DNA of 64,000 nucleotides from a virus: IMG/VR virus record IMGVR_UViG_3300031417_000416. One strand, 5' to 3'. The position numbers were made by a program, and so were the translations under genes. Below are positions 3,241 through 56,751 of this stretch, piece by piece (within the stretch, counting starts at the first letter, position 1; each line of letters begins with the position of its first letter). The notes under the pieces are model-generated. The model searched no databases. It was given only the letters and a program-made list of their open reading frames with translations, and was not told where the DNA came from.

Positions 3241-4308
3241 ATGCTAAACTACTGGAAGGCGCCGAACGGCCCTGTCGAGCGGGTGTATCTGCAGATCGCC
3301 CCGAACCGTCGCATCTACGGCCAGCGGGTGACTGGCGACCGCGTCGCATGGCGCGGAGACGGCATGGAGCCCGAGATCGCCGAGCAGACCGCCCGCCGGG
3401 AGATCGGCGATCTCCCGAGCTGGAGCGTGCTGCGCCGCATGGTGGATCCAGGCGTCCGGACCGCTGCCGATACGCCAGAGCAGGACGGTCCCGTCACCGG
3501 GCTGCGTGCCGAGCCCCTGCGACGCGAGCCGCCTGAAGCGCCCGCCCGCGTGCAGCGTCGCGAGGATCGTCGGGCCGCGCGGTCCGCCACGCCGAAGATC
3601 GACACCCCGTACGGAAAAAGGGACAGCGAGAAGCTCGATACCGCGAAGCTCGGTGCGCTTCCGCAGATCACCCGTCTCGTCGTCGATGTGCGCGAGCCAC
3701 GCGAGATCGCCGGCATACTCTCGCGCATCGAAAATCTCGAAGTCGAATATGCTCCGCTGGAACGCGGACGCTACATGGTGGACGGCTGCCTTGTCATCGA
3801 CCGCATATCGACGTTCGACCTGCATAGGGGAATCGTCGACGATCCGAAGCCCCTGCTGAAGCGCGTCTCCGATCTATCGGACGTAGACCACGCGACGCTG
3901 TTCGTCGTGGAGGGAGGCGCGAGGACGCATCGAAGGGCTTCCCTAGAGAGGATCGCCGGCGCGGTGTCGTACGTGTCCGTCGTCCACCGCGTGCCCATCA
4001 TCGAGACCATCGACGTATGGGAGACGGTCTACGTCATCGCGCGCGCCATCGGCCACGCCTGCCATCCCGTAGCTGACGATCTTCCGCAGCCGGGACATCG
4101 ACGCGGTGGACGCAAGGACCACCGCGTCTCGCCGCGATATGTTCTTGAAGGCATTCCCGGCGTATCGACGGTGCGTGCCGAGATGATCCTCGAGCGGTTC
4201 GGCTCGCTCAGGGCGGTCGCCGAAGCTCCGATCGAACAGCTTCTGGACCTGCCTGGCCTCGGACCGACCGTCGCGCAGGCGGTATACGACGCCTTCAACG
4301 GCACCTGA
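3241..4308 (+). CDS. ERCC4/XPF-family domain + (HhH)2 protein, catalytic residues degenerate
   Basis: VVDVRE motif; GRY in place of GDY and IDRIS in place of ERK; C-terminal LEGIPGV...RFGSL...LPGLG HhH pair. Confidence 0.75.
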   Translation: MLNYWKAPNGPVERVYLQIAPNRRIYGQRVTGDRVAWRGDGMEPEIAEQTARREIGDLPSWSVLRRMVDPGVRTAADTPEQDGPVTGLRAEPLRREPPEAPARVQRREDRRAARSATPKIDTPYGKRDSEKLDTAKLGALPQITRLVVDVREPREIAGILSRIENLEVEYAPLERGRYMVDGCLVIDRISTFDLHRGIVDDPKPLLKRVSDLSDVDHATLFVVEGGARTHRRASLERIAGAVSYVSVVHRVPIIETIDVWETVYVIARAIGHACHPVADDLPQPGHRRGGRKDHRVSPRYVLEGIPGVSTVRAEMILERFGSLRAVAEAPIEQLLDLPGLGPTVAQAVYDAFNGT

Positions 4309-4370
4309 TCGCACCAGTATGCACGTGCAGTGTCGGGGACGACGTTCGACGTCGGAGGAATTCCGACAGA

Positions 4371-4447
4371 TGGCGCCCACGGCAGGACTCGAACCTGCGA
4401 CCTACGCTTTCGGAAAGCGGCGCTCTATCCAGCTGAGCTACGTGGGC
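4371..4447 (-). tRNA. tRNA-Arg: tRNA-Arg(CCG)
   Basis: GCCCACG..CGTGGGC acceptor, loop TT-CCG-AA, GGTTCGAGTCC T-arm, encoded CCA. Confidence 0.95.
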
Positions 4448-4493
4448 CCGACGACGGAGCCTGCGAAGACCACATCGACGAAAGGAAAAGAAC

Positions 4494-4856
4494 ATGTCTG
4501 CAGACGCGCAGATCCTGGATCGCATCGACGTCCGCTGGTCCGTCAGGACGAGGAGCGTCGTCGACACGGTATTCGGCAAGGCGGTAGTGAACTGCAGCTT
4601 CAGCATCGTGCTGGGGACCTATGACGGGCCTACCACCCAGAAGACGCTTGCGGACAACATCAACGGCCGCGGCGTATACGAGGACGACATCGACAGCGTC
4701 TCGTGCATCGACGGCGATCCTTCGGTCACCGAGATCGTGCAGATCCTGGCGGCATGCAGCGTACGTCCCGAGGACGTTGTCGAGATGATCATTCAGGACG
4801 TGATCGTCGACGACGGTCACGAGATCGCCTCGAGCATCATGGAACCCCGTCGCTGA
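4494..4856 (+). CDS. hypothetical protein
   Basis: AAAGGAAAAG RBS; acidic 120-aa ORF. Confidence 0.6.
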   Translation: MSADAQILDRIDVRWSVRTRSVVDTVFGKAVVNCSFSIVLGTYDGPTTQKTLADNINGRGVYEDDIDSVSCIDGDPSVTEIVQILAACSVRPEDVVEMIIQDVIVDDGHEIASSIMEPRR

Positions 4857-4887
4857 CCGACGTCGTCACACAAGCGAGGAAAAAGGT

Positions 4888-5424
4888 ATGCAAGACGAAA
4901 GACCGGGCGTCGACCTGGGCAAGCGCGACGGTCCGGTGGATCCCGCCCGCAAGGACGAGTATCTCGGGCCACCGAGGGACGGCAATGTGGCCCTGTCCAG
5001 GAAGCTGATGATCTGCGTGGCCCTGGTGATCGCCGTCATTGTCGCCCTCCTGGTCGTCGGGCGCAGCAGGCAGGCACCGTCACCGCCGCCTGCCGCTCCG
5101 GTGTCGACGCCGGTACGTCGTCAGGCGATCGTGGAGCAGGCGGCACCGGAAGCGGAGCCGGTGGCCGAACCCGTCGAGGAGCCCGTCGATCCTCTGGAGA
5201 CCGCGCGAGAGAAAATCTGCCGCTCGATCGCGAGCGAGTTCGTCGACACGCCGACGCCGACGCAGGAGCAGATGCGACGTACGCTGACCATCTACAACCT
5301 CAACGAGTGCAGCAACCGCTACATCCGCGACAAGGACGCAGAAGGGCGAGGGCTCGACAAGGCCGAGCTCCAAGCCGTCCAGGCGCAGGAGAGCGTCGGC
5401 CCGCTGCGGCTCGAGGACAAGTAG
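4888..5424 (+). CDS. single-pass membrane hypothetical protein
   Basis: Hydrophobic LMICVALVIAVIVALLVVG segment followed by a Pro/Glu linker. Confidence 0.6.
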   Translation: MQDERPGVDLGKRDGPVDPARKDEYLGPPRDGNVALSRKLMICVALVIAVIVALLVVGRSRQAPSPPPAAPVSTPVRRQAIVEQAAPEAEPVAEPVEEPVDPLETAREKICRSIASEFVDTPTPTQEQMRRTLTIYNLNECSNRYIRDKDAEGRGLDKAELQAVQAQESVGPLRLEDK

Positions 5425-5444
5425 GAAGCCGTCGCCGGCCTGAC

Positions 5445-5521
5445 TGGCGCCCTCCACAGGAGTCGAACCTGTGACCTCAGCCTCCGCAAGGCTGCGCTCT
5501 ATCCGGCTGAGCTAGGAGGGC
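5445..5521 (-). tRNA. tRNA-Arg: tRNA-Arg(GCG), rare isoacceptor
   Basis: GCCCTCC..GGAGGGC acceptor, anticodon arm CAGCC-TTGCGGA-GGCTG, A20 in D-loop, encoded CCA. Confidence 0.92.
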
Positions 5522-5551
5522 CGGCGTTCCCGAAGGAACGTCGTATAGGTC

Positions 5552-5628
<77 letters not shown>

Positions 5629-5673
5629 GCAAACTCTGAAAATCGTAGACAACCAAGCAAGAGGAGAATCCCC

Positions 5674-5949
5674 ATGCCTATCGTCCGTGTAACCGTTGCA
5701 GAAGACGTCGAAGTGCCCGAGGGCAGCGTCGTTGTCCTCGCTCCCACCGGGGTCGTCTCGGCGATCCGTCTTCCCGACGGGACCGAGATCAAGCCCTGGA
5801 TCACCTACGAGGCGGACGCCGACACCGATCAGCCGCGCGATCTCTCCTTCGAGGAACTCGCGGCGTTCGGCGTCGATACCGGCCTAGACTACAGCCGTCA
5901 GATCGAAGGCGATCTCGAGGAGATCCAGCCTCAGACACTTGCGGCCTAG
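5674..5949 (+). CDS. hypothetical protein
   Basis: AGGAGA RBS; 91 aa, antisense to the flanking tRNAs. Confidence 0.65.
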   Translation: MPIVRVTVAEDVEVPEGSVVVLAPTGVVSAIRLPDGTEIKPWITYEADADTDQPRDLSFEELAAFGVDTGLDYSRQIEGDLEEIQPQTLAA

Positions 5950-5957
5950 TCGAAGAA

Positions 5958-6045
5958 TGGTGGGTAGGGCTGGATTCGAACCAGCGTAGGGGTTTCCCCC
6001 GCCAGATTTACAGTCTGGTGCCTTTAGCCACTCGGCCACCTACCC
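5958..6045 (-). tRNA. tRNA-Tyr: tRNA-Tyr(GTA)
   Basis: GGGTAGG acceptor, loop CT-GTA-AA, long variable arm, encoded CCA. Confidence 0.95.
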
Positions 6046-6074
6046 ATTGGGAAAGTATCCATACCTGATCCAAC

Positions 6075-6149
6075 TGGCTCCCTGAGTAGGACTCGAACCT
6101 ACGACCCACGCATTAACAGTGCGATGCTCTACCACTGAGCTATCAGGGA
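6075..6149 (-). tRNA. tRNA-Asn: tRNA-Asn(GTT)
   Basis: TCCCTGA..TCAGGGA acceptor, loop CT-GTT-AA, encoded CCA. Confidence 0.95.
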
Positions 6150-6167
6150 ATGTAGTTGGATCAGGAA

Positions 6168-6242
6168 TGGAGCGGGTAAGGGGATTCGAACCCCTGTCCT
6201 CAGCTTGGAAGGCTGCTGCACTAACCCCTGTGCTACACCCGC
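6168..6242 (-). tRNA. tRNA-Gly: tRNA-Gly(TCC)
   Basis: GCGGGTG acceptor, loop CT-TCC-AA, encoded CCA. Confidence 0.95.
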
Positions 6243-6305
6243 GTTCCCAATCATTGTATTCTACAGTATTGTATTACGTCACATAGTCAACTCCTAGTTA
6301 AGTGA

Positions 6306-6380
6306 TGGAGCGGGCGAAGGGATTCGAACCCTCGACCCCAACCTTGGCAAGGTTGTGCTCTACCCCTGAGCTACGCCCGC
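6306..6380 (-). tRNA. tRNA-Gly: tRNA-Gly(GCC)
   Basis: GCGGGCG..CGCCCGC acceptor, loop TT-GCC-AA, encoded CCA. Confidence 0.95.
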
Positions 6381-6458
6381 TTGCTTCAGCACTTGGTCTG
6401 TTCCTTTTTGATTGTTCAACCGCGATCGAATGTCAATCACTTATTTCAGGATGCTGCG

Positions 6459-6725
6459 ATGATCGACGACATCAAGGACGTCACCTCTCATACCGAGGGC
6501 AATATCCTCTACGAAGGCACCGCCCGCTTCCTTGCGGAAGGCGATGAGTATGCATCGCAGGCCTGGCGCTTCCGTGCGAACGACGAGGCCGGCGCCCTTG
6601 AGACGCTGGACCGTCTGTCCGACGGATGCATGTACGCCGATCCCCGCATCGACTACGTCCGGGACTTCGAGGTCGAGGAGCAGGCCGACGTGCTGGACGA
6701 GGACAGCAAACCCGTCGGAGCCTGA
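6459..6725 (+). CDS. hypothetical protein
   Basis: Acidic 88-aa ORF between tRNAs; CAGGA upstream. Confidence 0.55.
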   Translation: MIDDIKDVTSHTEGNILYEGTARFLAEGDEYASQAWRFRANDEAGALETLDRLSDGCMYADPRIDYVRDFEVEEQADVLDEDSKPVGA

Positions 6726-6775
6726 CGCCCCGACGGTTAGTTCGGAATTACACCAACGATGTCAAAGAGCGGATC

Positions 6776-6852
6776 TGGGGCGACCGACGGGGTTCGAACC
6801 CGCGGCATCGGGCACCACAAGCCCGCGCTCTACCGACTGAGCTACAGCCGCC
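6776..6852 (-). tRNA. tRNA-His: tRNA-His(GTG) with encoded G-1:C73
   Basis: G-GCGGCTG..CGGTCGC-C-CCA; arm CGGGC-TTGTGGT-GCCCG. Confidence 0.93.
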
Positions 6853-7090
6853 ATCAGATCCAACTCGCCCACGATGGAACGCGGACGAACGTCATTGTTC
6901 AGATCAGGCCTGCGCCTGGTCGATGTGTCTGGGGTCGGTTGTGTGGTAAGTCGAGGGAGATCGCGCAGATCTGTCTTCTACCGGCCAGCGCCCAGTCTAT
7001 CGACCGGGGCGCGAACGAACACCCCGGGGTCAGAGACCTCGGTTATATCGCCCGTTATTGTGATGCCGAATCTGCGTCATGATGCGGTGG

Positions 7091-7118
7091 ATAATAGAGA
7101 CACCCGGAAATTTGACAA
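7091..7118 (-). promoter_or_regulatory. putative sigma70-like promoter facing tRNA-His
   Basis: TTGTCA-N16-TATTAT on the minus strand, partly inside the imperfect palindrome CCGGAAATTT...AAAATTCCGG. Confidence 0.35.
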
Positions 7119-7168
7119 TAGGCAAAATTCCGGATGACGAAAAATCCGGTCCGGAACAGGGACGCCGG

Positions 7169-7209
7169 CTAGCGGCTAGCGGAACGGGGACGTCGACTAG
7201 CGGCTAGCG
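7169..7209. repeat. 13-bp direct repeat CTAGCGGCTAGCG x2
   Basis: Copies at 7169-7181 and 7197-7209. Confidence 0.8.
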
Positions 7210-7451
7210 ATCGCGACGTCGTAGCGCACGTTGCTGCGCAGCGGTCGCATGTCCGAAGAGGCGACGACGATGCGGTCGTGCCTGCGCTCCATCTCGAGAT
7301 AGGCTGACGCGTCGTCATGTGCGGCGGTCATTGCGGCCATCCGCACGACTCGCAGCCGATCCTCCGTGGTCGGAGCCGGATGTGCGGTCTGGGCCGAGGC
7401 CGACGCCGCAAGAAGCAGGGCGGCCCCTGCGCTGAACATGCTTGCCATCAT
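7197..7451 (-). CDS. small secreted hypothetical protein
   Basis: Signal peptide-like MMASMFSAGAALLLAASASA. Confidence 0.5.
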   Translation of the reverse strand: MMASMFSAGAALLLAASASAQTAHPAPTTEDRLRVVRMAAMTAAHDDASAYLEMERRHDRIVVASSDMRPLRSNVRYDVAIASR

Positions 7452-7544
7452 GACCGGTACAACGGACGATGCGGCCGAAAGTGCCACCACGGATGCCCGA
7501 CGTGCTCGGGTGAAGACATGATCAGGAACAGAAAGGAAAAGACC

Positions 7545-8462
7545 ATGGTCCAGATGGGACTGCCGCCCGTGATCTCGCTTACCGGCGTCGGCCAGGTCGG
7601 CAAGAGCGAGGTCGCCAGGTATCTGAAGGAACGCTACGGCTACGGCGGCGACCATATCAACGAGCCGATGGTGGCGATGGCCATTCCGCTGCTCGAGCGG
7701 ATGGGGTGCACGCACGAGGACGCGGTCTCGCGTCTGACCACCGCTCGCAAGGCGGAGGCCATACCCGGCTATGAGTGGCTCACGGGTAGGAAGATCCTCC
7801 AGGCGGTCGGCTACGATCTTCGCAATGCCCTAGGGCGTCTGACGGACGAGTCCGTCGATGCCGTCGACGAGGGGTTCTTCCTCGACATGTGGGAACGACG
7901 TCACGCGCACTTCGAGCGTCTCGTCAACGAGTCGGCCCGATATCCGGTCGAGATCGACTGGACGGAGGACCGCGGCGGCATCGTCATCCTCGTGGACGCC
8001 AAGGACGCGGAGGCCGCGAACGGACATATCTCCGAGACCAAGTCGCTTCCCCATGACTATCTCCTGTTCAACGACTTCGACGGCCTGTCTCGCCTCCACG
8101 CCAAGGTGGATGCGATCCTCATGCAGTGGAGCGCTCCGGACAACAGGCCGGAGGAACTCGCCGAACGTCGCCAGCTCCGTCTCTTCACGGACAACCCGGG
8201 TCTATGCTTCGAGGTCGACGGGCAGGTGCGCTACGGCGAGGAGAACGGACGATCGGCCTTCGAGGCCCTGGAAGGCGCCATGGCCGACACGCTGGTCGCA
8301 CGTGTCCGCCAGCGCTTTCCCGGCAGCGACGCCAAGATCGTCGAGATGGAACGATGGCTGGAAGGACAGCGCAGGATGGAGCGCATGCGGGCAGCGCTCG
8401 TCATCTCGCACTTCGGGGTCGCGGACTTCAATGCACGCTATGCCGCCCTGAAGGCGGCCTGA
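7545..8462 (+). CDS. phage-type deoxynucleoside monophosphate kinase (T4 gp1-like) with C-terminal extension
   Basis: P-loop ISLTGVGQVGKS, GRKILQAVGYDLR, ESARYPVEIDWTEDRGGIVI; AAAGGAAAAG RBS. Confidence 0.7.
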   Translation: MVQMGLPPVISLTGVGQVGKSEVARYLKERYGYGGDHINEPMVAMAIPLLERMGCTHEDAVSRLTTARKAEAIPGYEWLTGRKILQAVGYDLRNALGRLTDESVDAVDEGFFLDMWERRHAHFERLVNESARYPVEIDWTEDRGGIVILVDAKDAEAANGHISETKSLPHDYLLFNDFDGLSRLHAKVDAILMQWSAPDNRPEELAERRQLRLFTDNPGLCFEVDGQVRYGEENGRSAFEALEGAMADTLVARVRQRFPGSDAKIVEMERWLEGQRRMERMRAALVISHFGVADFNARYAALKAA

Positions 8463-8472
8463 GGAGGAGCAC

Positions 8473-9147
8473 ATGATGAAGGATGACAGGATAAGGATCG
8501 AGCTCGAGCTGCTGATGCCCGCCAGCGCGGCACGTCCGATCGCGGACGGCATGACGATCGAGGAGCTTACGGAGGCCGTGCGCGGGGCAGGGAGGACGAT
8601 GGGAAGGATTCGCGTGATCTCGACCGAAGCGGTCGAGGGAGACGACGCGGCAATCCAGGTTTCGAAGAGCGGAGTCGACATAGCGCCCTTCGTGGATAGA
8701 CCCGAGACATTCGAGGTGCTTGGCATGGTGCGCCCGGCGAGCATCGTCCAGCCCGAGGAGCACTATGCCACGGTCCCCATCGTGAGCGCGAATCGGACAG
8801 ACGCCGGATGGATCGGTCGATGGGGGTTCAGCGGCGGCGCCGTCACCGCGACGCCCGACGCCCACCCGACCCGGGAGGACGCGGTGACTGACGCGACGAG
8901 GCGTGCCAGGGCGTCCATCGATCCGGAAGCGGAGGCCGACGAGTTCGACGGGCAGGCACACGTCGACGCGTTCGACCTCTCGATTCACTACGGCGCACTG
9001 TTCATCGACGACGAGAACCGCTGGCGCGGTCGCTGGTACCGCGGCGAGTGGACCGGAGAGGGGGCCTATACTGAGGCCCTGTACGATACGCCGGGACAGG
9101 CGCGTCGTGCTGCGCACAGGCTGCGTGCGACCGGCGACGAGTCGTGA
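8473..9147 (+). CDS. hypothetical protein
   Basis: GAGGAGGAG RBS; coupled to next ORF. Confidence 0.65.
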   Translation: MMKDDRIRIELELLMPASAARPIADGMTIEELTEAVRGAGRTMGRIRVISTEAVEGDDAAIQVSKSGVDIAPFVDRPETFEVLGMVRPASIVQPEEHYATVPIVSANRTDAGWIGRWGFSGGAVTATPDAHPTREDAVTDATRRARASIDPEAEADEFDGQAHVDAFDLSIHYGALFIDDENRWRGRWYRGEWTGEGAYTEALYDTPGQARRAAHRLRATGDES

Positions 9148-9869
9148 CCGCCGCCCCGGCGACGGGGCGGCCAAAGGTCTTCGCGATCCACGGAGAGGAG
9201 GCCCTGACGCTTCCCGCCGACATCGCCCGACGCCCGGGCTGGCGCGAGTGGACGTCCGGTCACGACGTTCGCCTCTGGCATCATGCGACCGATGTCGACG
9301 AGCCCTTCTGCATCTTCGCGCGTCAGGACGAGGCTTCGATAGGCTTCCACTTCGGCACCCATGCAGCCGCTTCCGAGCGTCACCGCATCATGTTCCGGAT
9401 GGCGGACCCCGACGATCGGCCTGGCTGCGGACTGATGCTGTCGGCGCTCGTCAGGACGGCGAGACCGCTGCGACTGCGCGACAGGCACTGCTGGGACATG
9501 GATCAGGTAACTTCGGATCTCGTGGAGATCGAACTGATCGACGAAAGTCTCGAGGACGAGATCCTGGGCTCGGCCGACACCCAGGCGATATTCGCCGCCA
9601 TCGAGCGGGGCGGGTACGACGCCGTGCTGTACGCCAACGAGACCGAAGGCTGCCACGATGGGGGCCAGGACAGCATAATGGTCTGGCGCGCGGCACAGAT
9701 ACGCTCCGTTCACGCCACCGGTTTCGAAATCGACGACCCCAGGCTATGCCCGAGCTTGAGTCCGACCCCAGAAGAGTGGCAATGGTGGGAGGAGAACGAA
9801 AGGGGAATCGACCAATGGCTACGACAGTTCGGGGAGTTTCCGGATCGACGACGATGCCTTCGCGCATGA
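9144..9869 (+). CDS. ADP-ribosyltransferase-like (ART-PolyVal-like) protein
   Basis: WHHAT...F..F...IGFHFGT..AA, RPLRL, GYDAVLY.NETE and AQIRSVH.TGF.IDDP pattern. Confidence 0.55.
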   Translation: MTAAPATGRPKVFAIHGEEALTLPADIARRPGWREWTSGHDVRLWHHATDVDEPFCIFARQDEASIGFHFGTHAAASERHRIMFRMADPDDRPGCGLMLSALVRTARPLRLRDRHCWDMDQVTSDLVEIELIDESLEDEILGSADTQAIFAAIERGGYDAVLYANETEGCHDGGQDSIMVWRAAQIRSVHATGFEIDDPRLCPSLSPTPEEWQWWEENERGIDQWLRQFGEFPDRRRCLRA

Positions 9870-11641
9870 CTGCGACGGACAGGATCCGGATATACGCGTC
9901 CGACGTACGCGTCTTCTCCAAGGCGGACGCGGTGCGCCGCCTGGGCGAGGAGACGGCGCGAGCCATCCAGCCGATGGTCGCGCGCGGCGAGCTGGCGAAC
10001 CCCGCGACCGGCATCTACACGTCTCCCGGCGTGCTGGCGGACGACCCCAGGGTACTGACCAAGATCGAGCAGACCGGCGCCAAGCCGGTCAACCGCAAGA
10101 CCGTCGAGGCGCGGGCGCGGAGGATCGAGGAGCAGGCCGCCAAGCGGATCGCGAAGGACGCGGCCAAGGAGAGCACCGTCGATCTGGTACGGAAGTTCTT
10201 CGTGCGACAGGATGTGGCGCTGGTAAGCGAGCTGCGCCGCAAGATCGGCCCCAACGTCTCCTCAGGCCTCGACTCCCTCGTGAAGGAGGGATTCGTCCGG
10301 CGGATCGAGAACGGTCTCTACGCGCGTCCCGGCGTGGATCCGCTCGGGCCGGTCATGAAGGCCTACATCGAGAAGAACAGCATCGAGCTCGCGACCATCA
10401 AGCGCGAGATCGACGAGGCGAGGCGCAACCTGCCGGCCGATGCTACCTTCGCGCATTCCGACATCGACTACAGCGTATACGAACCCGAGAGCGAGGACGG
10501 CAGGCCCGCGCGCACCAGGGTGTACGTCAACATTCCCGGGTACCCGGCCATCTACGCGTCGAGCGGGACCGGCGGTGCGCCGGTGTGGGGCGGGTCGCGG
10601 GACAGCGGTCTGAGCCGACATGCTGCGGACCATCTCGCGCGCATGGTCTTCGAGCCGATGCCCGAGACCTATGCCGCGCTCGTTCGGATCGTCAGGGAGG
10701 AGCGTGCGCCCCGCCACGTGCGTCGGCGCAGCGGCGGCCACGACGTCGACGACAGCTGGCGCTCGAGGCCCGAAGAGACGGCGCGAAGCCAAAGGTCGGA
10801 CGATCGTCCTGCGGAACCCGTCAGGAGCAGGACGCAGGAGACGCCTCGCCACGACCGGGTGGACGAGCCGCGTAGGGACCAGACCGACGCGCGCCCCAGA
10901 CAGCGCGAGGAGCAGCGCTTCGGCCAGAAGGGTCCCTACGGGACACAGGATACCGACCGTCTCCACCCCGACCGCCTGTCGACGCCGCTGCCCGAGACCG
11001 TGACGCTGGAAATCGACGACCGGGAGAGCGACTGGCTCATCACCCGCCTGACGGGCGTGGAGAACCTGCACGTCATCAGGACGCGTCTCCCCGTCGGCGA
11101 TTTCCGCGCGCGACACGGCGACCGCGAGCTGCTGTTCGAACGCAAGACATCCGCCGACCTGGTGGCGTCCCTGCAGGACGGACGCATGACGACGCAGGTC
11201 CGCGCGCTGAGCGAACTCGGATCTCCGTGCTGCTTCGTCGTCGAGGGCGGCGTGTTCGGCAACAGGGGTCTTCCGATCACCAAGCTGGCGGCGATGCAGA
11301 GTCGTCTGATGTTCGGCATGCGCATGCCTATCGTCGAGACCATCGACCAGTCACATACCGCCTATGCGATGGTAACCGCCATCCGGGACCACTTCTTCGG
11401 CGTCGGCGACAAGTTCGATCTGGAACCAGTCCGCCTCAAGGGGGCCGGCCCCGTCGAGATCGCCAAGGTCATGCTCGAGACGATTCCCGGCATCTCGCCC
11501 ACCCGGTCGACCGCGCTCCTGAAGCGCTTCGGCTCGCTCGCGGGCATCACCCGCGCCACCGTCGAGCGGATCGCGGAGATCGACGGCATCGGCAAGAAGA
11601 CCGCCGAGAAACTGCACGAGGTACTCCGCGCCGGCGCATGA
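9866..11641 (+). CDS. ERCC4/XPF-family nuclease + (HhH)2 with two N-terminal wHTH-like repeats
   Basis: IDDRE, VGDF, LFERKTSADLVASLQDGRMTTQ intact; HhH pair LETIPGI..RFGSL..IDGIG; ATGA overlap supports start 9866. Confidence 0.85.
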   Translation: MTATDRIRIYASDVRVFSKADAVRRLGEETARAIQPMVARGELANPATGIYTSPGVLADDPRVLTKIEQTGAKPVNRKTVEARARRIEEQAAKRIAKDAAKESTVDLVRKFFVRQDVALVSELRRKIGPNVSSGLDSLVKEGFVRRIENGLYARPGVDPLGPVMKAYIEKNSIELATIKREIDEARRNLPADATFAHSDIDYSVYEPESEDGRPARTRVYVNIPGYPAIYASSGTGGAPVWGGSRDSGLSRHAADHLARMVFEPMPETYAALVRIVREERAPRHVRRRSGGHDVDDSWRSRPEETARSQRSDDRPAEPVRSRTQETPRHDRVDEPRRDQTDARPRQREEQRFGQKGPYGTQDTDRLHPDRLSTPLPETVTLEIDDRESDWLITRLTGVENLHVIRTRLPVGDFRARHGDRELLFERKTSADLVASLQDGRMTTQVRALSELGSPCCFVVEGGVFGNRGLPITKLAAMQSRLMFGMRMPIVETIDQSHTAYAMVTAIRDHFFGVGDKFDLEPVRLKGAGPVEIAKVMLETIPGISPTRSTALLKRFGSLAGITRATVERIAEIDGIGKKTAEKLHEVLRAGA

Positions 11642-11678: not shown

Positions 11679-12329
11679 ATGGCAAGAGCGCTAAAGCACA
11701 TGGACTACGACCCTTCCATTCCCTGCTGCAGGGGCATGGACGAGATCGTGGCTGGAATAGACGAAGTGGGCCGCGGCTGTCTCGCCGGCCCCGTATACGC
11801 CGCGGCGGTGGCCTTCCGTACGCGCGATCTCCCTATCGGCCTGAACGATTCCAAGAAGCTCTCCGCCAAGCGGCGCGAGGCGCTGTACCCCCAGATCGTC
11901 GCGTGCGCCCACGTCGGCATCGGCTTCGCCACGGTCGAGGAGATCGATCGCCTCAACATACTGGAGGCGACGCACCTCGCCATGCGGCGCGCCTTCGGAA
12001 ACCTGCCTCTGCGCCCTCTCACGGTCCTGATCGACGGACCGGCGGATCCCGGCATAGGAGCGCGGGGCTACCGCGTGATCAATCACGACGGCCTGGACGG
12101 AGCCTGTCCCACGGTCGCCGCCGCCTCGATCGTCGCCAAGACGGTGCGCGATGCGATGATGACCGACCTGTCCCTAATCCATCCTCAGTACGACTGGGGT
12201 TCGAACAAGGGCTACGGCACGAAGAAGCACTACGCGGGACTGGAGTCTCACGGATTCACCGACCACCATCGGCGCAGCTTCTCGCCGATCAAGGAAATGG
12301 CGAGGGCTGCGGCCCGAAAAGGGAACTGA
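11679..12329 (+). CDS. rnhB: ribonuclease HII
   Basis: AGIDEVGRGCLAGPV, LNDSKKLS, VAAASIVAKTVRD, NKGYGTKKH, HRRSF. Confidence 0.95.
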   Translation: MARALKHMDYDPSIPCCRGMDEIVAGIDEVGRGCLAGPVYAAAVAFRTRDLPIGLNDSKKLSAKRREALYPQIVACAHVGIGFATVEEIDRLNILEATHLAMRRAFGNLPLRPLTVLIDGPADPGIGARGYRVINHDGLDGACPTVAAASIVAKTVRDAMMTDLSLIHPQYDWGSNKGYGTKKHYAGLESHGFTDHHRRSFSPIKEMARAAARKGN

Positions 12330-12336: not shown

Positions 12337-12987
12337 ATGCACGACAAGATCATAGCCCGTCGCCACAACTCCTACAGGCTTCGCGCCGGTACCGTGACCG
12401 ATGTCGACCAGGGCAAGGGCCCCCTTCTGCAGGCGGGCATCGGACCGGCCAAGATGGAGAAGGTGACGATGGAATGGGACGGCGGCGACGTCGGCGAGAT
12501 CGTCAGGCGCTTCCCGATCGAGGTCCAGCCTGGCCAGCGCCTCTACGCGCTGACGGTCGAGAGCGGCGTCAGCGTCCACCCGGACCGGCCCATATTCGTG
12601 TTCAACGCCGCCAACGGCCATCAGCACCGCGAGATCAACGCGCCGTCCGTGCGTTCGCGCGGCCGGCTGTTCGCGGACCGGCTGCCGCTCGTGCTCGCCG
12701 CGGTGGTCGTCGGCGCCTTCATGTCGATCTACGCCACCTATTCCGGCGCCGTCTACGGAGATATCGTCATGGGACTGGGCATCGCCCTGGTGGGGCTGCT
12801 GATCGGATGGGGCGTGCTGATGACATACGACATGCGACAGAATGGCCACCGCGCAGAGCGTCTGGAGGACGAGCAGGCTGCGGCGCTCGAGGCCGTCGAG
12901 GCGCTCAACGTGGATATCCGCGACAGGATCGCGGTCCGGCAGGCGGAGCAGGCGGAACGCACGGAACAAGAGGACGCCCGAAGCTGA
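12337..12987 (+). CDS. two-TM membrane hypothetical protein
   Basis: Two hydrophobic helices followed by a coiled-coil tail. Confidence 0.65.
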   Translation: MHDKIIARRHNSYRLRAGTVTDVDQGKGPLLQAGIGPAKMEKVTMEWDGGDVGEIVRRFPIEVQPGQRLYALTVESGVSVHPDRPIFVFNAANGHQHREINAPSVRSRGRLFADRLPLVLAAVVVGAFMSIYATYSGAVYGDIVMGLGIALVGLLIGWGVLMTYDMRQNGHRAERLEDEQAAALEAVEALNVDIRDRIAVRQAEQAERTEQEDARS

Positions 12988-13589
12988 TGGCGGGCGCGGT
13001 CATAGCTGCTGAGGGCGTCGTCTTCCGATGCTCCAGCATGAGCGAGCCCGGCGTCCACCACTACATCTCGGTACCCCTCGACGGAAACGTCGAATGCTCG
13101 TGCAACGGCGTGGGGTGGTGCTCGCACATCGACGCCACCCTGGTCGCAGGAGAGCGTCACATGGTGCCTCCGGACGACTGGCGTGCCGCCAATCTCGCCT
13201 GCGTCATAGCAAGAGGAAAGATCGGCCCCACCGAGGACTGGAAGGCGACATGGCGCGATAACCGGCGCTGGCGCGGCCTGCCGACCGTACGGAGCGCCGC
13301 CGCGCTACGGGCGCTCCAGCATCGCAAGCCACTCGTCGCGTTCACGGGCAAGGGAGCGCGACGGACCAATCTGGAGTACATGTCCACAGAGCATGGCTGG
13401 GAGGTCACCGGAACCCTGGTGGAGGGGTGTGCCTATCTCGTGGTGCCGGATGCCGAGGCTCAGGGAGGCTCCGTAGACACGGCTCAGCGGCGCGGGGTGC
13501 CCGTCGTCACGTACGACGACTGGGAGGCGATCTCGGCCGATACCTGCCTCATCCTCGCATCGGCCATGAGGGGCGACGAGGGGAGGTAA
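12987..13589 (+). CDS. SWIM zinc finger + BRCT domain protein
   Basis: ECSCNGVGWCSH (CxC..CxH); VAFTGKGARR..YLVVP..TAQRRGVPVVTYDDW resembles the NAD-ligase-type BRCT; TGATG coupling. Confidence 0.65.
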   Translation: MAGAVIAAEGVVFRCSSMSEPGVHHYISVPLDGNVECSCNGVGWCSHIDATLVAGERHMVPPDDWRAANLACVIARGKIGPTEDWKATWRDNRRWRGLPTVRSAAALRALQHRKPLVAFTGKGARRTNLEYMSTEHGWEVTGTLVEGCAYLVVPDAEAQGGSVDTAQRRGVPVVTYDDWEAISADTCLILASAMRGDEGR

Positions 13590-13664: not shown

Positions 13665-15770
13665 ATGGCTGACAATATCCCCACGCATCATTCATCCGAG
13701 AAGAACAAGGGCATGCTGGTCGTGGCCGGGGGTGTCGCGGCCTCGCTGCCGCTGATCCTGACGACGGTCCAGTTCGGGCCGCTGGTCGGACTTCTCTCGG
13801 GAAGCGACTTCAATGCCGAGACGTGGGACAAGGTCGGCAACTACATGGGCGGGCTGTACGATCCGCGCGCGATCGCCAGCTACTACAAGTACTCGTGGAG
13901 CCAGTGGCCGATGGCCACCGCCGCCGGTGGACTGATCAGCATGGCTATCGGCGCGGCGCCGGCGATCGTGGCGGCGGCGGTCAATCCGTTCCGCATGTTC
14001 GACCTCATCCACGGCGACGCCCGGCTTGGCAACAAGCGCGACGTCCGCGAGATGGAAAGGCGGTCACAGGTCGGGATCGTCGGGGCGGACAAGCTGGTTC
14101 TCGGAAACTGGCCGAAAACGACGGATCGCATGGCCCTCATAGAGACGCTCTCGGTGCTGGTTCTGGCCCCTCCCGGCACCGGAAAGACGGCCTCGTTTGT
14201 CGTACCGTCCATCATCGAAACGGACGGATCGAGCTTCATCGTAAACGATCCGAAGCCAGAGCTCTTCGAAGCCTGCTCCGGTCACCGTGCCGAGATCGGC
14301 CACGTCTTCATGATCAACTGGTCCGCGACCGACAAGGTTGATCCCGACCACCTCGACGATCCGACCAAGACGATCTTCTACCCACGCTTCAACGTGCTCT
14401 CGCCGCAGCTGACCCCGCCCGCCGGTACCGCCGAGCGCGACACGTACCTGGACGCGATCGCCAACGTGCTCTCTCCCGGCGGCGACAAGGGCGGAAAGAA
14501 CGACTATTTCGAGCAGAAGGGCCGCGCGGGACTCGTCGGCTTCCTCCACTACATCTGCTCCAAGGTGAACGACGCACGCGACTACGACGGCCTGCCCGAA
14601 TTCTGGCGCGGCAAGGAAGCGTGCATCCCGATGATCGTCGATATGATCAACGAGGGTCTGCGGCGTGCGGCGGCGGAAAACGATCGCAAGAAGGAAGAGG
14701 CAGCCGCCTCGCAGAGCTTCTACCAGGGCGACGCGATGAGCGACTGGCTGAAGGCGATCGTGGGTGAGTGCGAGGAAAAGCAGTACAATCCGCGCGCCTC
14801 GACCGAAATCACCCCGCTCATCTCGATGGCCCCCAACGAGCGGTCGGGTATCCTCGGCACGATGGACAAGGCGTTCATCCCGTTCAAGAACGCCGCCGTC
14901 CGCGAGCGCACCATGTCGTGCGACTTCCTGCCTTCCGACCTGCGCGGCATGCCGGACCCCGAAACGGGCGAGATGAAGCCCGTCACGCTCTTCGTCTGCG
15001 TCAACCAGGCGGAGGCCGCGGCGTTCGCGACGATCACGTCGCTGCTCTACGAGGTGTTCAGCCGCGAGTTCCTCGCGTACGGCCCCAGGCAGGTGAACCG
15101 CAACAACGTCAAGCTCGGACCGTACCCGGTCTGCTTCATGCTCGACGAGTTCGCCAAGCTGCCGCGCATCGAGGCCGTCATGACCGGTCCCGACCTCGGA
15201 CGTTCGAAGGCCACCTACTACTGCCTCGTGGCGCAGTCGGCGGCCCAGATCGGCAAGCTGTACTCCAAGGAGGATCAGGAGATCATCTACGCGACCACAG
15301 CGGTCAAGTACGTGCTCCCCCAGAACGACAAGGACACTGTGCAGCTGATCTGCAGCATGGTAGGCCCCACCACCATTCGGAAGTCGTCGCGGTCCAAGAG
15401 CCGCGGAGGCGACTTCAAGGAATGGGGCAAGTCGAACGAATCGATCGGGCTGGAGAAGGTCGACCTGATCCGTCCGGGAGACATCTCGGGCATGAAGCCC
15501 GGCACGCACATGCTGATCTGTCAGGGCTTCATGAACCGGCCCTTCATCATGGACAGCGTATTCTGGTTCAAGAACAAGGAAATGGCCGCCAAGGTCTACA
15601 ATCCCCGTAACGAGCAGGGTCCCAAGCCCTCTCAGCCGCTGCCGCCCCACATCAGGGCCCGGCGGATCGAGGAGTGGATGAAAAACAACGGCCACTTCCA
15701 GCCCAAGACCGTGGCTCCCCAGCCCAGGCGGAATACCGACCTGGATCCGGACGAGCCAATGGCCGCCTGA
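13665..15770 (+). CDS. virD4: type IV secretion coupling protein, VirD4/TraG family
   Basis: N-terminal TMs, IHGDARLG, Walker A APPGTGKT, VNDPKPEL, Walker B MLDEFAKL, AQSAAQI. Confidence 0.9.
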   Translation: MADNIPTHHSSEKNKGMLVVAGGVAASLPLILTTVQFGPLVGLLSGSDFNAETWDKVGNYMGGLYDPRAIASYYKYSWSQWPMATAAGGLISMAIGAAPAIVAAAVNPFRMFDLIHGDARLGNKRDVREMERRSQVGIVGADKLVLGNWPKTTDRMALIETLSVLVLAPPGTGKTASFVVPSIIETDGSSFIVNDPKPELFEACSGHRAEIGHVFMINWSATDKVDPDHLDDPTKTIFYPRFNVLSPQLTPPAGTAERDTYLDAIANVLSPGGDKGGKNDYFEQKGRAGLVGFLHYICSKVNDARDYDGLPEFWRGKEACIPMIVDMINEGLRRAAAENDRKKEEAAASQSFYQGDAMSDWLKAIVGECEEKQYNPRASTEITPLISMAPNERSGILGTMDKAFIPFKNAAVRERTMSCDFLPSDLRGMPDPETGEMKPVTLFVCVNQAEAAAFATITSLLYEVFSREFLAYGPRQVNRNNVKLGPYPVCFMLDEFAKLPRIEAVMTGPDLGRSKATYYCLVAQSAAQIGKLYSKEDQEIIYATTAVKYVLPQNDKDTVQLICSMVGPTTIRKSSRSKSRGGDFKEWGKSNESIGLEKVDLIRPGDISGMKPGTHMLICQGFMNRPFIMDSVFWFKNKEMAAKVYNPRNEQGPKPSQPLPPHIRARRIEEWMKNNGHFQPKTVAPQPRRNTDLDPDEPMAA

Positions 15771-22702: not shown

Positions 22703-24088
22703 ATGAACGACATGACGTACCGCTATTGCCCCGTCGATCTGGCCAAGAGCCTCGACGCCGACATCCATCCCTGGCTGCTGTCCGAGCGCGAGGGCGGCAA
22801 CAAGACCAAGCTCTCGTACGTGAAGGTCGACATCCTCACGGACACCCTCAACAAGCTGTTCGGTCCGCTTGGCTGGGGCGTCGAGGCCGAGATCCAGAAG
22901 ATGGAGGACTTCCAGTACGACAAGCCGGGCTACCAGGGCGCGGCGTCGAGCGAGATGTACGTGTTCCAGGTCATCTCGCAGGTGAAGCTGACCATCAAGC
23001 CGCAGACCGACGGCGGCACGCCGACCGTCTTCATCCAGTCCGGCATCGGCTACGGCGAGGTGAAGGTCAACGCGCATCGCAAGGACGCGGTCGGCATGGC
23101 GGTCAAGGGCGCCGAAAGCGACGGACTCAAGCGCTGCTGCAACTTCCTCGGTCGCGCGCTCGGCATGTTCCTAGTCGGCGGCAAGCAGGACCCGGTGATG
23201 TATGCGCACAACGGCAACCGCAACGCCTCGGTCGTGAGCCGCGCCAAGCGCGACCGCGACGACTACGAGGACAGCCGGCGCAGCCGCGGACGGCGCGACG
23301 ACCATGACGACAGCGGCGATCGCGGCGGCAGGGACGACGGCCGCTCCGAGGGGCGTGAGCGCGACAGTCGCGGCGGTGGCGAGGGGCGTCGTCAGGAGAC
23401 GCAGGACCGCGACGAGCGTCCGCGCGATGAACGTCCGCGCGATGAACGTCCACGTGACGAGCGTCCGCATGACGAGCGTCCGCGTGGCGACCGTCAGGGG
23501 ACCGAGCGTTCGGAGGGCGGCCGTACGCGCGACGAGCAGCCTCGCGACGACCGCGGCCGTGACGACCGACCTCGCGACGATCGCCAGGGCGAGGGGCGTC
23601 AGGGGGGCGACCGTCAGGCCGACGATCACGGCCGCGAGGAGCAGGCCCGCGACGGCAAGGGCGGCGACGGTGGATCGCGCGACCGTGCCGAGGCCGCTCC
23701 CCGCAAGGACGAGCCGCAGGACGCCGGGCGCGGTGCCGACGCTCCGTCGGGAGAGGAGCCTGAGACGTCCTCGCGTCGTCGGCCGGCCTCGCGCGGCGCG
23801 ACCGAAGCCGGCAAGGACGAGGCCGTCGAGAAGGGCAAGCCCGAGGTGAAGGGAGTGCGCAAGGCCAATACGAACTACGATCTGCGCAAGGTTCCCGTCA
23901 CCAGGGAGAACCAGCAGGACTTCGGCGCGACCTTCATCAAGCAGATGGAGGGCATGCGTCAGGCCGAGGATCAGGTCACGATGGTCAAGAACTACGCGCA
24001 GCGCATCAACGAGCTCGATCCGGACGTGCGCGCCCTGGTCGTCGCCCGCCTGCGCGAGCGGAACGTCGACGTGACGCTGCTCGACTGA
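22703..24088 (+). CDS. Rad52/22 (Sak)-family single-strand annealing protein with long R/D/E-rich disordered region
   Basis: LSYV...LNKLFGPLGW, GIGYG, AVKGAESDGLKRCCNFLGRALG. Confidence 0.85.
   Translation: MNDMTYRYCPVDLAKSLDADIHPWLLSEREGGNKTKLSYVKVDILTDTLNKLFGPLGWGVEAEIQKMEDFQYDKPGYQGAASSEMYVFQVISQVKLTIKPQTDGGTPTVFIQSGIGYGEVKVNAHRKDAVGMAVKGAESDGLKRCCNFLGRALGMFLVGGKQDPVMYAHNGNRNASVVSRAKRDRDDYEDSRRSRGRRDDHDDSGDRGGRDDGRSEGRERDSRGGGEGRRQETQDRDERPRDERPRDERPRDERPHDERPRGDRQGTERSEGGRTRDEQPRDDRGRDDRPRDDRQGEGRQGGDRQADDHGREEQARDGKGGDGGSRDRAEAAPRKDEPQDAGRGADAPSGEEPETSSRRRPASRGATEAGKDEAVEKGKPEVKGVRKANTNYDLRKVPVTRENQQDFGATFIKQMEGMRQAEDQVTMVKNYAQRINELDPDVRALVVARLRERNVDVTLLD
23411..23485 (+). repeat. 15-bp coding tandem repeat x5 (DERPR)
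   Basis: GAYGARCGTCC-N4 units at 23411, 23426, 23441, 23456, 23471. Confidence 0.9.
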
Positions 24089-25262: not shown

Positions 25263-28200
25263 ATGTCGTCCTACAGCTACACTGACTGGGCCCAGCTCAG
25301 CGAGAATGACAAGAAGAACCTCCCGGGGGTCTCGATCCCGCGCGACCACAAGCTCAACAACCCCAACCGGGGCGTGTACTGGAGCCCGGAGACGTCGGCG
25401 CAGGCGCTGTCCGCTCACCTCGAGCAGATGCTGACCCACCCCGAGGACGCCATCCGCCAGCAGACCTTCAACGAGCTGCGCGGCGTCGCTGACGACGCCT
25501 TCCGCTCCTCGCGTCTGGTCGAGCGCGCGATGAACGTGCGTCGTGACGACGCCAACCGCGCCAGCGACGGCTACGCCGGCTTCATGGACGACACCCAGCT
25601 GACGCTGCTCGCCGACATCCAGAAGGACGTCTCGGTCATCCAGAAGGAGGCGCGTGCGCTCGGCCTCGACCCGATCGAGAACTCCAAGCGTGCGATGAAC
25701 ATCGCCTCTGGCCATGCCGTCGGCTTCGACATGGCCTCCGCCGAGGCCTCGTTCGCCAGGACCGGCCTGTCGATCGGCCCGGTCGAGACCATGAAGGACT
25801 CGGCTCGCCAGCTCAACAACTCGCTCTCGAACCGCGATCTCGACGCCATGGACATGGTCGAGTCGATCGGACGTTCGCGCAGCTTCGACGAGGACAGCCG
25901 CGACGAGCATCGCCGCATGGCCGACGTCATGAAGTCGATCCCGCTCGCGCTCGACTACGCGCAGCTGGCGACCGAGAACAATCCGTCGTTCCGCATGGAA
26001 ACGGCGGCCGAGGCGAGCGTCATGGAGACGCTGTCGCGCCAGGTCATGAAGTGGGAGACGCTGCCGGAGCGCGAGACCGTCCACGAGGCGTTCTCCGCAT
26101 GGCGCGACGCCGGCGTCGCCGAGTCGCCGTTCTCCAAGGACATCCCGCAGACCGTCGCCGTCATCGTCGGCGCGGGTCCGCAGGCTGCCGAGAACCTCGC
26201 CGACATGCTCGAGACGATCCGCGGCGATCAGCGCATGGGCGACCGTGACGTCACGATCCTGGCCGTCGAGCCGGACAAGGACTTCTACGACACGCTCAAG
26301 GAGCATGGCCGTCCGACCATCGAGGTCGTGGCGCTCGCCAGCACCAACGGCGTGTACGTCGACGCGCGCAACCAGGGCGAGGGCAAGGGCGATGACCCGA
26401 CCATCGAGCTGATGACGCTCAACCGCGAGGAGGCTCACGATCCGATCCGCCGCTCGCTCAGCGCGAACGCGCTGGTCGCGCGCGCCGCGACCGTCGCCTA
26501 CGTGCAGGGCGCCAACATGACGGTGGCGGAGGCGCAGGCCCTCCACATCGCCGGCACCGCGCGCAAGCTGTCGCTCGGCATCGACCGCGACGGCGAGAAG
26601 ATGGACGGCCAGGCTCTCGCTCGGGCGCGCGCCACCGCGATCTCGATCGACAAGAAGGACGATCCGCAGCGCTACTACACCGCAGGCCTGGCGCGTCCCG
26701 CCGACGGCATCTACGGCGTGGCGTTCGAGGCGTCGCGCTTCGCCGACCGCGGTCATGCCAAGCACGCTCCGGGTCAGGACATCATGGGCGACGCCTATGA
26801 CCGCGTGCCCAAGCACGCCACGATCTGGGCCGTCGACCAGCAGGAGAACGCCAACGTCCGCTGGCTGCAGGAGAACGCCACCGAGCGCACCATCCTGTAC
26901 GCCGAGGCCAAGCGCACCCTGTCCTTCTCGACCGTGGCCGGCATGGGCCTCGAGCGCCAGAAGGTCCGCACCCGCGAGGCCGGCACGGACATCACGATCT
27001 ATGACCGTCCGCGCGACCAGCGCGAGTACGAGATCGATCCGGCCACCGGCAAGGAGCGCTGCCTGACGCGTCCGCTGCAGCTCAACTCGTCGCGCGAAGC
27101 GTCGCCCGAGGAGAACGAGCAGGTCATGATCGACCGTCGCAAGATGCGCGGCGCGATCGTGCTCGTCACCGGCAGCGCCCACGACAAGGGCACCCTGAAC
27201 ACCAGCGCCCAGGAGGTGAAGGTGGCCCAGGAGGCCGTGGCCGACCGTGCGCACACGTTCGTGATCCTCAGCGACGCCAAGCACCCGGCGCTGTCCAAGG
27301 ACATGCACATGGCCCACATGACGCGTCTCGCCTACGAGACGAACAAGAAGGCCACGTTCATCAACGGCGACGGCAGCGAGATGCCGCTTGACGAGGCGCG
27401 CCGTCACACCACGCGCCTGGGTCCGAACCAGGAGGACGCGATCAACCTGAAGTTCGACGAGCGCATGCGGAAGATCGACAAGGACAACCGTCCGAAGGCA
27501 TCGTCCGACTACGCGCTCGACAGCGACGAGGGCCGTCTGGCGCTCGCGGCGCTGCCGGGCATGGATGCCCGTCGCGCGGCTGCCATCGCCTCCACGGAGG
27601 AGCTGGCAACCCTGACGATCAAGGAGGTCGCGACGAACCACGATCCGGAATTCCACCGTCAGCTTCACCAGGTGGTGCTGCGCGGTCCGGACGGACAGCC
27701 CGAGCTGGGCTCGAACGGCAAGGAGATTCCCGCCATGCCGGCCGAGACCCTGCGCGTCATCAACGACAAGGGCGAGTGGGCGACGGCTCTCGATCGCGCC
27801 GAGGCGATCACCGCCGAGACGAACAAGTTCGGCATGACCGTCTACCACCCGGACGAGCAGATGCACCCGCTGAAGCTGGTCAACGGACCCGACTATCAGC
27901 CCAAGAGCGTGATGATCGAGCACACGGCCAACCCCGATGCGTTCGACTTCTCGCAGCTCAAGCTGGCGGCGTTCATCGGTGGCAGCCAGTCGTACAACGA
28001 GCCGGGCGAGCTGCGCCGTCGCGAGGACGCGCGTCGCGAGATGGAGGACAAGCTGAAGGGCGTCACTGCCGACACGCTGGCCACCGAGGAGGGCCGCAAG
28101 ACCCGTGACGACGCGATCTCGTCGTACCGGGAGGCGGTCCGCGACACGCACGCGAGCCGCGATCCGGGCGAGAAGGTCGACCGCGAGCAGCTGCGTGCGG

Positions 28201-33004: not shown

Positions 33005-33052
33005 GGTCATTATTCTCTTGCATTGAATCGGCGGCTTTAGCACCACCCTTCA

Positions 33053-33682
33053 ATGCTCGAGAAAACGCCTTTGAGAGAGTCCATGTTCTGGGCTCACGTT
33101 ACCAAACACCAGGGTGAGGACGCTTGTTGGGAGTGGAACGCGTACATAACCACATCCGGATATGGCGCCTTAGGGACCACAGACAGTGGTCACCGAGAAA
33201 AGTTCTACGCCCACAAGGTCTCGTTCGAATGGTACGTGGGTATCCTAAAGCCAGGGCAGATGGTGAGACACACATGCGACAATCGCCCGTGTATACGGCC
33301 AAAACATCTGATTCCTGGCACACACCAGGACAACATGGACGACATGGTGGTGCGCAAGCGCCATGTCGGCAATCGCGAGATCGACGCGGAAACGGCCATC
33401 CGAATCCGGGTTCGTCGAGCGGCCGGCGAAAGCGCCAAACTGCTGGGGGCGGAGTACGGCCTCACTCCCCAGCACGTCAGCAACATCTGCACCGGCGTCT
33501 ATTGGCCGGATGCGGGAGGTCCTCTCACCAGGAGGTTCGAGATCGATGATAAAATGATCCTCGACGTCCTCATGGACCTCCCTACAATGACACAGTCAGC
33601 GTGCGCTGCGAAGCACGGCATCTCGAAGGCGGCGGTCCAGCAGATCGCAGCCGGGAAACGCAAACCAAGGAATACGACATGA
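33053..33682 (+). mobile_element. free-standing HNH homing endonuclease (HNH_3 / I-HmuI-like) between nrdA and nrdB
   Basis: CWEWNA..GYG..YAHKVS..VRHTCDNRPCIRPKHL..GTHQDNMDD; C-terminal HTH-like repeats; visibly AT-richer than flanks; ATGA overlap with nrdB. Confidence 0.85.
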
Positions 33683-55536: not shown

Positions 55537-55687
55537 CGCGGGCCCGAGAGGGCCCCGTACGCTGACCAATCCCCGCCGGACGGACACGAACGTCCCTACG
55601 GCGCAGGATCCGCCGACGTCGATGCCTCCGTACGAGAGGTCCATGGCGTCTGCGGTCGATCGCTCAAACCAGGACAAGGAAAAGAAT

Positions 55688-56272: not shown

Positions 56273-56279
56273 TCCCGAG

Positions 56280-56742: not shown

Positions 56743-56751
56743 GGAGACGAA

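Follow-up and report, generated by a model that had tools for sequence, protein, structure and literature searches.

Two ERCC4-(HhH)2 genes on one element

We analyzed a stretch of 64,000 nucleotides, in the following called the window, from the IMG/VR virus record IMGVR_UViG_3300031417_000416. About 5.5 kb apart it encodes two proteins of the XPF/ERCC4 family, each combining an ERCC4 nuclease fold with a tandem helix-hairpin-helix domain, (HhH)2. The longer protein carries the complete active-site signature of the family, whereas the shorter one is a conserved and putatively dead relative. A previous interpretation of the same letters (the sequence-only reading) had noted both proteins and suggested that they assemble into an active/inactive heterodimer. 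Open reading frames (ORFs), Pfam and NCBIfam matches as well as AlphaFold2 and Foldseek results agree with the first part of this description; the heterodimer is taken up below. The locus is composed as follows:

3241-4308, plus strand: short XPF paralogue, 355 amino acids (P0001), predicted pseudo-nuclease
3241-3444, plus strand: N-terminal beta/alpha domain of the short paralogue (residues 1-68), four strands and two helices, predicted local distance difference test (pLDDT) 90-96
3670-4062, plus strand: ERCC4 nuclease-fold domain of the short paralogue (residues 144-274)
4132-4299, plus strand: (HhH)2 domain of the short paralogue (residues 298-353), hairpins IPGVS and LPGLG both intact
4371-6851, minus strand: eight tRNA genes (ARAGORN) between the short and the long paralogue
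9866-11641, plus strand: long XPF paralogue, 591 amino acids (P0003), full catalytic signature
9866-10435, plus strand: two tandem winged-helix (AbiEi-like) domains of the long paralogue (residues 1-190)
10466-10696, plus strand: internal beta/alpha domain of the long paralogue (residues 201-277), same four-strand, two-helix topology as the N-terminus of the short one
11003-11629, plus strand: ERCC4 (residues 380-510) and (HhH)2 (residues 536-588) domains of the long paralogue

The ATG of the short gene at 3241 follows a ribosome-binding site, GGGGAGG, at a distance of 7 nt. Its product matches the Pfam family HHH_5 (E = 9e-9) and, under the cutoff, ERCC4 (E = 0.0024); for the long protein the values are 3e-12 and 3.3e-10. 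The NCBIfam model of the Hef nuclease matches both paralogues (5e-25 for the short, 1.6e-27 for the long). HHH_5 and HHH_2 exceed their cutoffs in both proteins and both hairpin motifs are present in each. Modelled with AlphaFold2 (pLDDT 86.7), the short protein retrieved Aeropyrum pernix XPF (2bgw, E = 8e-13) as the top match in Foldseek and showed a template modelling (TM) score of 0.82 to the Hef nuclease domain 1j22; lower matches were chains of FANCM-FAAP24, MUS81-EME1 and XPF-ERCC1 (E = 2e-9 to 1e-4). Its N-terminal domain, for which atlas and Foldseek searches gave no convincing structural match, contains an RVY...W motif common to the long paralogue; W5 and Y16 are near-invariant among 53 short-type family members. 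Residues 73-120 are disordered in the model, and a low-confidence basic linker, HRRGGRKDHR (residues 286-295), is invariant in the clade of short proteins.

For the long gene the ATG at 9866 is accompanied by an alternative in-frame ATG 12 nt upstream (9854), which would yield 595 amino acids. A 912-residue ORF (8903-11641) was rejected as a read-through artefact of high-GC DNA: a start at 9866 or 9854 follows from the homologues and from the upstream gene that it overlaps. When the first 285 residues were modelled with AlphaFold2 (pLDDT 83), we obtained two winged-helix units with a long helix behind each. Foldseek returned weak matches only for this N-terminus, to winged-helix proteins such as TrmBL2, SelB and IclR. 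The model is consistent with the weak AbiEi matches of the long protein, including those in PADLOC, which were its sole signal in the defence libraries; the short protein had no PADLOC defence-system match. In the phage-family libraries neither ERCC4 protein was assigned to a family. Y220, P227 and W241 are invariant in the internal beta/alpha domain. The long protein is in effect the entire architecture of the short one with two winged helices added.

Catalytic motifs and selection

In BLASTP the two proteins align over about 340 residues with 27% identity (E = 5e-27). The RVY motif lies within the aligned region, and Y16/Y220 and W37/W241 are invariant across both clades. Judging from this similarity the genes are true paralogues, as the sequence-only reading had argued from the small motif upstream of the nuclease domains.

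Corresponding catalytic residues were assigned by profile alignment to A. pernix XPF (VDVRE, GDY, ERKTSSD; E = 1e-30). The signature of active XPF proteins, D-x-R-E ... G-D-x(n)-E-R-K-x3-D, is complete in the long protein (IDDRE, GDF, ERKTSADL). Among 19 homologues with identities down to 42%, D384, R386, D412, E425, R426, K427 and D431 are invariant and the motif-I glutamate E387 is near-invariant (at least 90%). The long protein is therefore predicted to be an XPF-family nuclease with full catalytic signature, and the motifs first listed for it are all present.

The signature is incomplete in the short protein, which reads VDVRE, GRY and IDRISTFDL. R177 (3769-3771) takes the place of the GD aspartate, and D187-R188-I189 (3799-3807) that of ERK. 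The metal-binding acidic residues and the lysine had been described as lost from this copy. This holds for the GD aspartate, now arginine, and for the ERK lysine, now isoleucine; the ERK glutamate is conservatively replaced by aspartate, and Asp and Glu of the first motif as well as the last Asp are retained. Among ten members of the short clade, which share 50-98% identity, the catalytic substitutions are fixed in all ten; at the ERK position one member has ERI and one DRV, the rest DRI.

We estimated the ratio of non-synonymous to synonymous substitution rates (dN/dS) of the short gene against five relatives. It amounts to 0.13-0.22 for the whole gene, with 0.09-0.19 for ERCC4 plus (HhH)2, 0.08-0.16 for the N-terminal domain and 0.4-1.2 for the disordered linker. 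The short gene is under purifying selection and is not decaying. A pseudogene, which we also considered, was ruled out by these ratios together with the conservation. For the long gene dN/dS of ERCC4 plus (HhH)2 is 0-0.03, a four to five times tighter constraint than on the short gene.

The retained residues D149, E152, D187 (in place of Glu), R188 and D193 could point to a short protein that is still a nuclease, with a non-canonical active site. We regard this as very improbable. The GD aspartate and the ERK lysine are required in characterized XPF enzymes, as known from XPF mutagenesis, and both are lost here. An arginine at the position of a metal ligand would moreover fill the metal site, dN/dS lies four- to five-fold above that of the active paralogue, and the branch leading to the short clade is long, with 1.33 changes per site. 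As far as its residues tell, the short protein is a conserved, catalytically degenerate member of the XPF family, i.e. a pseudo-nuclease.

Family background and origin of the pair

The two proteins are members of a bacterial subfamily of XPF/ERCC4-(HhH)2 proteins that is carried by mobile elements. Its common layout begins with a small N-terminal beta/alpha domain, which is followed by a disordered linker, a conserved arm (PYGxxDxxxLD), the nuclease fold and (HhH)2. With the short protein as query, an exhaustive search identified 1180 relatives at E ≤0.001. Most of the 178 relatives that were aligned have the canonical signature; beside the short clade about ten degenerate lineages are scattered among them. 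Two of these singletons are located on plasmid-like contigs: P0107 (L042, 10001-11023), with GGY/ERI, has no second ERCC4 gene within 10 kb on each side, and P0037 (L043, 448-1596), with GQF/GRR, has none within 447 bp upstream and 10 kb downstream. For P0070, P0128 and P0033 the contigs were too short to be informative on context. Catalytic loss thus appears to have recurred within the bacterial ERCC4-(HhH)2 family.

In PLSDB we found 143 plasmids with a homologue, mainly Pseudomonas megaplasmids, and exactly one copy in 143 of 143. The plasmid-borne ERCC4 proteins occur among genes for Rad52, RNase HII, topoisomerase III and helicases.

A tree of 65 family members calculated with IQ-TREE places the short clade, on its long stem, next to the active short-type protein P0033 (Shimodaira-Hasegawa-like approximate likelihood ratio test, SH-aLRT, 85), with the long clade adjacent. 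The tree is also compatible with short and long clades as sister groups (approximately unbiased, AU, test, p = 0.72). A recent tandem or in-place duplication was ruled out on the basis of the 27% identity and the grouping of the short clade with P0033. An older duplication is possible as the origin of the pair.

Predicted complex of the two proteins

We modelled residues 350-591 of the long protein together with residues 118-355 of the short one in three runs, with 3 controls. The pair passed with an interaction prediction score from aligned errors (ipSAE) of 0.77, compared to 0.00 for the best control; of 80 solved complexes 58 came up to this mark, as did 2 of 110 mismatched pairs. At least 68% of contacts are common to the runs, and the partner has a pLDDT of at least 78. 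The modelled interface is the canonical pseudo-symmetric two-interface XPF dimer: the long protein contributes helices 471-484 and 495-510, which contact helices 235-248 and 259-274 of its short partner, the (HhH)2 domains pair and the PYG arm reaches the partner. According to the model the two surfaces are compatible and a heterodimer is structurally plausible, with the restriction that close cousins of a true partner pass as well and that a heterodimer is not separated from two homodimers.

The modelled pair corresponds to what the sequence-only reading had in mind, namely an XPF-ERCC1-like arrangement in which the dead short protein joins the active long one via the nuclease-domain helices and (HhH)2. 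Such an enzyme would be asymmetric, with a single active site and a single pair of winged-helix domains, and would be of bacterial origin, independent of eukaryotes. Apart from the passing model with its canonical interface, contigs from metatranscriptome libraries lie over both genes, and the known dead members of the XPF family all act as partners in heterodimers. The model would probably pass for homodimers too, however, and the interface residues point elsewhere. Compared to the consensus of active short-type proteins, the predicted interface of the short clade is 38% identical and other positions are 35% identical. Since the interface matches to about the same degree as other positions, the dimer surface of the short copy is not visibly remodelled; it keeps the interface consensus of relatives that are presumably homodimeric. 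In the long copy the first interface helix departs from this consensus at most positions. The genes are also neither adjacent nor co-operonic. Taking this together with the distribution of the two genes described next, we consider the heterodimer a serious possibility that is somewhat doubtful.

The metatranscriptome contigs are compatible with expression of both genes, but carried-over DNA is possible and the contigs give no expression levels, so that we did not count them as proof of expression.

Co-occurrence of the two genes in related elements

A catalytic and a non-catalytic paralogue are encoded together in the window and in contigs L001, L036, L037 and L039, i.e. in 4 of 4 contigs long enough to tell, with the short gene 5.5-6.3 kb upstream of the long one. 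The short gene was found only in elements that also have the long gene, which fits a heterodimer. L036, L037 and L039 are 88-96% identical to the window at the DNA level, and the L001 proteins share 83% (short) and 92% (long) identity with those of the window. Because all these contigs represent one close lineage, their co-occurrence is not independent evidence.

In the reverse direction co-occurrence breaks down. Sphingomonas sp. 3-13AW (L002) carries the long gene at 79% identity in a context of RNase HII, coupling protein, UvrD and topoisomerase III, and its entire genome lacks the short gene, although the window backbone is matched on both sides of the position. A different segment (L002, 4424-7293) occupies the slot of the short gene and the tRNA array; it includes a 370-residue minus-strand gene without Pfam match. 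In L034 and L035, whose long proteins share 43% and 51% identity, no second ERCC4 gene was present in the stretches examined (10 kb on either side in one case, 6.6 kb upstream plus 10 kb downstream in the second). With the long gene alone in both syntenic and more distant relatives, the two are not co-inherited as expected of an XPF-ERCC1-type pair, and the expectation from the sequence-only reading that they travel together in homologous elements did not hold for the long gene. The short copy is an accessory gene restricted to one lineage and dispensable in a syntenic relative.

A search with the short protein in 401 Sphingomonadaceae genomes returned only the long homologue of Sphingomonas sp. 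3-13AW, the remaining matches being HhH domains of UvrC. Among 185,579 species genomes there was no short-clade gene and one long-clade gene. Isolate genomes barely sample the element, and the phyletic statistics therefore rest on metagenome contigs.

Possible role of the short protein

We tentatively favour, with a little less than even confidence, a dead copy that forms a non-cleaving, junction-binding dimer acting alongside the nuclease. The long protein would be the active structure-specific endonuclease of the element and self-sufficient, since related elements carry the long gene alone; presumably it is a homodimer like archaeal XPF. The short protein, which keeps the fold, the dimer surface typical of the family, both HhH hairpins and the basic linker, probably binds, as a dimer, DNA with branches or flaps and leaves it uncut. 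It may shield or mark the DNA structures that are cut by the active nuclease, or compete for them. We thus picture it as an accessory factor gained by one sub-lineage of the element rather than an obligate subunit of the nuclease. DNA binding, dimer state and regulatory role of the short protein are all deduced from these features.

The spacing of the genes is in line with this picture: they are 5.5 kb apart with a tRNA array on the opposite strand between them. The same applies to the weaker constraint on ERCC4 plus (HhH)2 in the short than in the long gene, without remodelling of the interface. Further points in its favour are the catalytic substitutions fixed in all ten orthologues, the purifying selection on the short gene, the occurrence of the long gene alone, the lack of a nearby partner for P0107 and P0037, the single copy on each of the 143 plasmids and the grouping of the short clade with P0033.

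Several points weigh against a separate short dimer. To our knowledge every characterized dead protein of the XPF family (ERCC1, EME1/2, FAAP24) forms a heterodimer with a paralogue, and we know of no stand-alone dead XPF dimer. The complex model clearly exceeded its best control, and in the window and all four informative contigs the short gene is never seen without the long one. Finally, the singleton degenerate relatives P0107 and P0037 could have partners outside the stretches examined.

The accessory nature of the short gene, found in one lineage, together with its conserved basic linker and intact hairpins, would also suit a dominant-negative or titrating regulator of the element's own nuclease. 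Such a protein might form inactive or less active mixed dimers or occupy substrates, thereby protecting intermediates of replication or transfer. The structural evidence for it is the same as for the heterodimer and for the junction-binding dimer; it overlaps with both and sequence data do not separate it from them. No observation speaks for this regulator directly, and we consider it improbable.

Comparison with known systems

Textbooks describe archaeal nucleases of the XPF family as active homodimers and the eukaryotic ones as active/inactive heterodimers; those of bacteria have, as far as we know, hardly been studied. In both sequence and structure the best matches are the archaeal short XPF of A. 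pernix (PDB 2BGW/2BHN) and the nuclease domain of Hef from Pyrococcus furiosus (1J22-1J25). Like these, the bacterial proteins have the ERCC4 fold followed by (HhH)2, and the long paralogue fully agrees with them in its catalytic signature and, in most elements, in being the only copy. In contrast to the archaeal proteins, they add the N-terminal beta/alpha domain, a disordered charged linker and the PYG arm. The long one further adds the two winged-helix domains. Both are encoded by a conjugative element, not by a chromosome.

The short protein resembles ERCC1, EME1/EME2 and FAAP24, the partners of XPF, MUS81 and FANCM, in being a paralogue of a catalytic subunit that kept the fold and (HhH)2 and lost catalytic residues; the modelled pair would use the same two interfaces. 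Unlike these partners it is dispensable in a syntenic relative and is not co-inherited across the family, and its partnership is a modelled one. It also keeps most acidic residues of the active site, and it is bacterial and plasmid-borne, with an origin independent of the eukaryotic duplications.

The subfamily also includes the single-copy ERCC4 proteins found on large plasmids of proteobacteria (Pseudomonas megaplasmids, Variovorax, Vibrio, Microvirga), which share the short architecture. WP_203447042 of Microvirga pMVF16-3, for instance, aligns with 99% of the short paralogue, including the N-terminal domain. They differ from the short paralogue by an intact GDY/ERK and by their occurrence as one per plasmid. 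In the literature we found no paper on the plasmid-borne ERCC4 family and none of its members functionally characterized.

A conserved dead paralogue beside a live one on a bacterial mobile element offers a small and tractable system, with two proteins of a size suited to soluble expression and no essential host function. It can be used to distinguish whether loss of the active site is accompanied by heterodimerization or whether a dead XPF dimer has a job of its own. Either outcome bears on the origin of the ERCC1, EME1 and FAAP24 partners. In addition, the finding draws attention to the ERCC4 family of large plasmids, which may have a role in the processing of plasmid DNA.

The element and its gene context

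The window has 65% G+C and nearly all of its genes are on the plus strand. Its DNA was recovered from phyllosphere and plant metagenomes of 17 studies. We are dealing with a large conjugative element, either plasmid or integrative, whose carriers are leaf-surface Sphingomonas-like bacteria. Besides the ERCC4 genes and the tRNA array we annotated the following features, given in window order:

785-1501: GmrSD_N-like protein
7317-8462, plus strand: deoxynucleoside monophosphate (dNMP)-kinase-like gene, 381 amino acids, phage family phrog_139 (E = 2e-23)
9144-9869, plus strand: ART-PolyVal-like gene, 241 amino acids, Pfam PF18760 (E = 0.0017, under the cutoff)
11679-12329: RNase HII
12337-12987 and 12474-13589, plus strand: two overlapping ORFs in different frames
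13665-15770: VirD4/TraG-type coupling protein
following the coupling protein: UvrD-type helicases and topoisomerase III
22703-24088, plus strand: Rad52/Rad22-family annealase (E = 3e-16)
following the annealase: primase-like protein
25263-29390, plus strand: protein of 1375 amino acids with a faint DprA-like match only
31052-34728: class I ribonucleotide reductase
following the reductase: RecD2, lytic transglycosylase and C5 methylase
55622-63290, plus strand: tellurite-resistance-type (ter) cluster with several TerD, TerC/DUF475, TerF-vWA and ATP-grasp_Ter

The Rad52-type annealase might cooperate functionally with an XPF-type flap nuclease. Yeast cells depend on Rad1-Rad10 (XPF-ERCC1) for trimming of 3' flaps during Rad52-mediated single-strand annealing. 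By analogy, an element equipped with both types of enzyme, a Rad52-type annealase as well as an XPF-type nuclease, may process its own DNA in a similar way. It is conceivable, if rather unlikely, that the two ERCC4 proteins represent an independently evolved asymmetric flap/fork nuclease of the eukaryotic style, perhaps working with the annealase in repair resembling single-strand annealing or in establishing transferred DNA.

The tRNA array comprises Arg-CCG, Arg-GCG, Arg-ACG, Tyr, Asn, Gly-UCC, Gly-GCC and His, all on the strand opposite to the surrounding ORFs, and thereby puts the two paralogues in separate transcription units. It is mostly absent from the syntenic element of Sphingomonas sp. 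3-13AW, and among the metatranscriptome contigs there are variants lacking parts of it.

Directly upstream of the long paralogue, the stop codon of the 241-residue gene overlaps the start as ATGA, an arrangement of translational coupling; the same pair is found in L001. In Sphingomonas sp. 3-13AW no gene was called at this place. Behind RNase HII, the ORF at 12474-13589 gave a weak BRCT match and a match to PADLOC PDC-S48, and the gene calls of L001 in this region are 213 and 200 amino acids long. The dNMP-kinase-like gene together with the ribonucleotide reductase indicates a phage-like nucleotide metabolism on the element. The ter cluster is preceded by a UvrD-like helicase, a hybrid histidine kinase and a C5 cytosine methylase.

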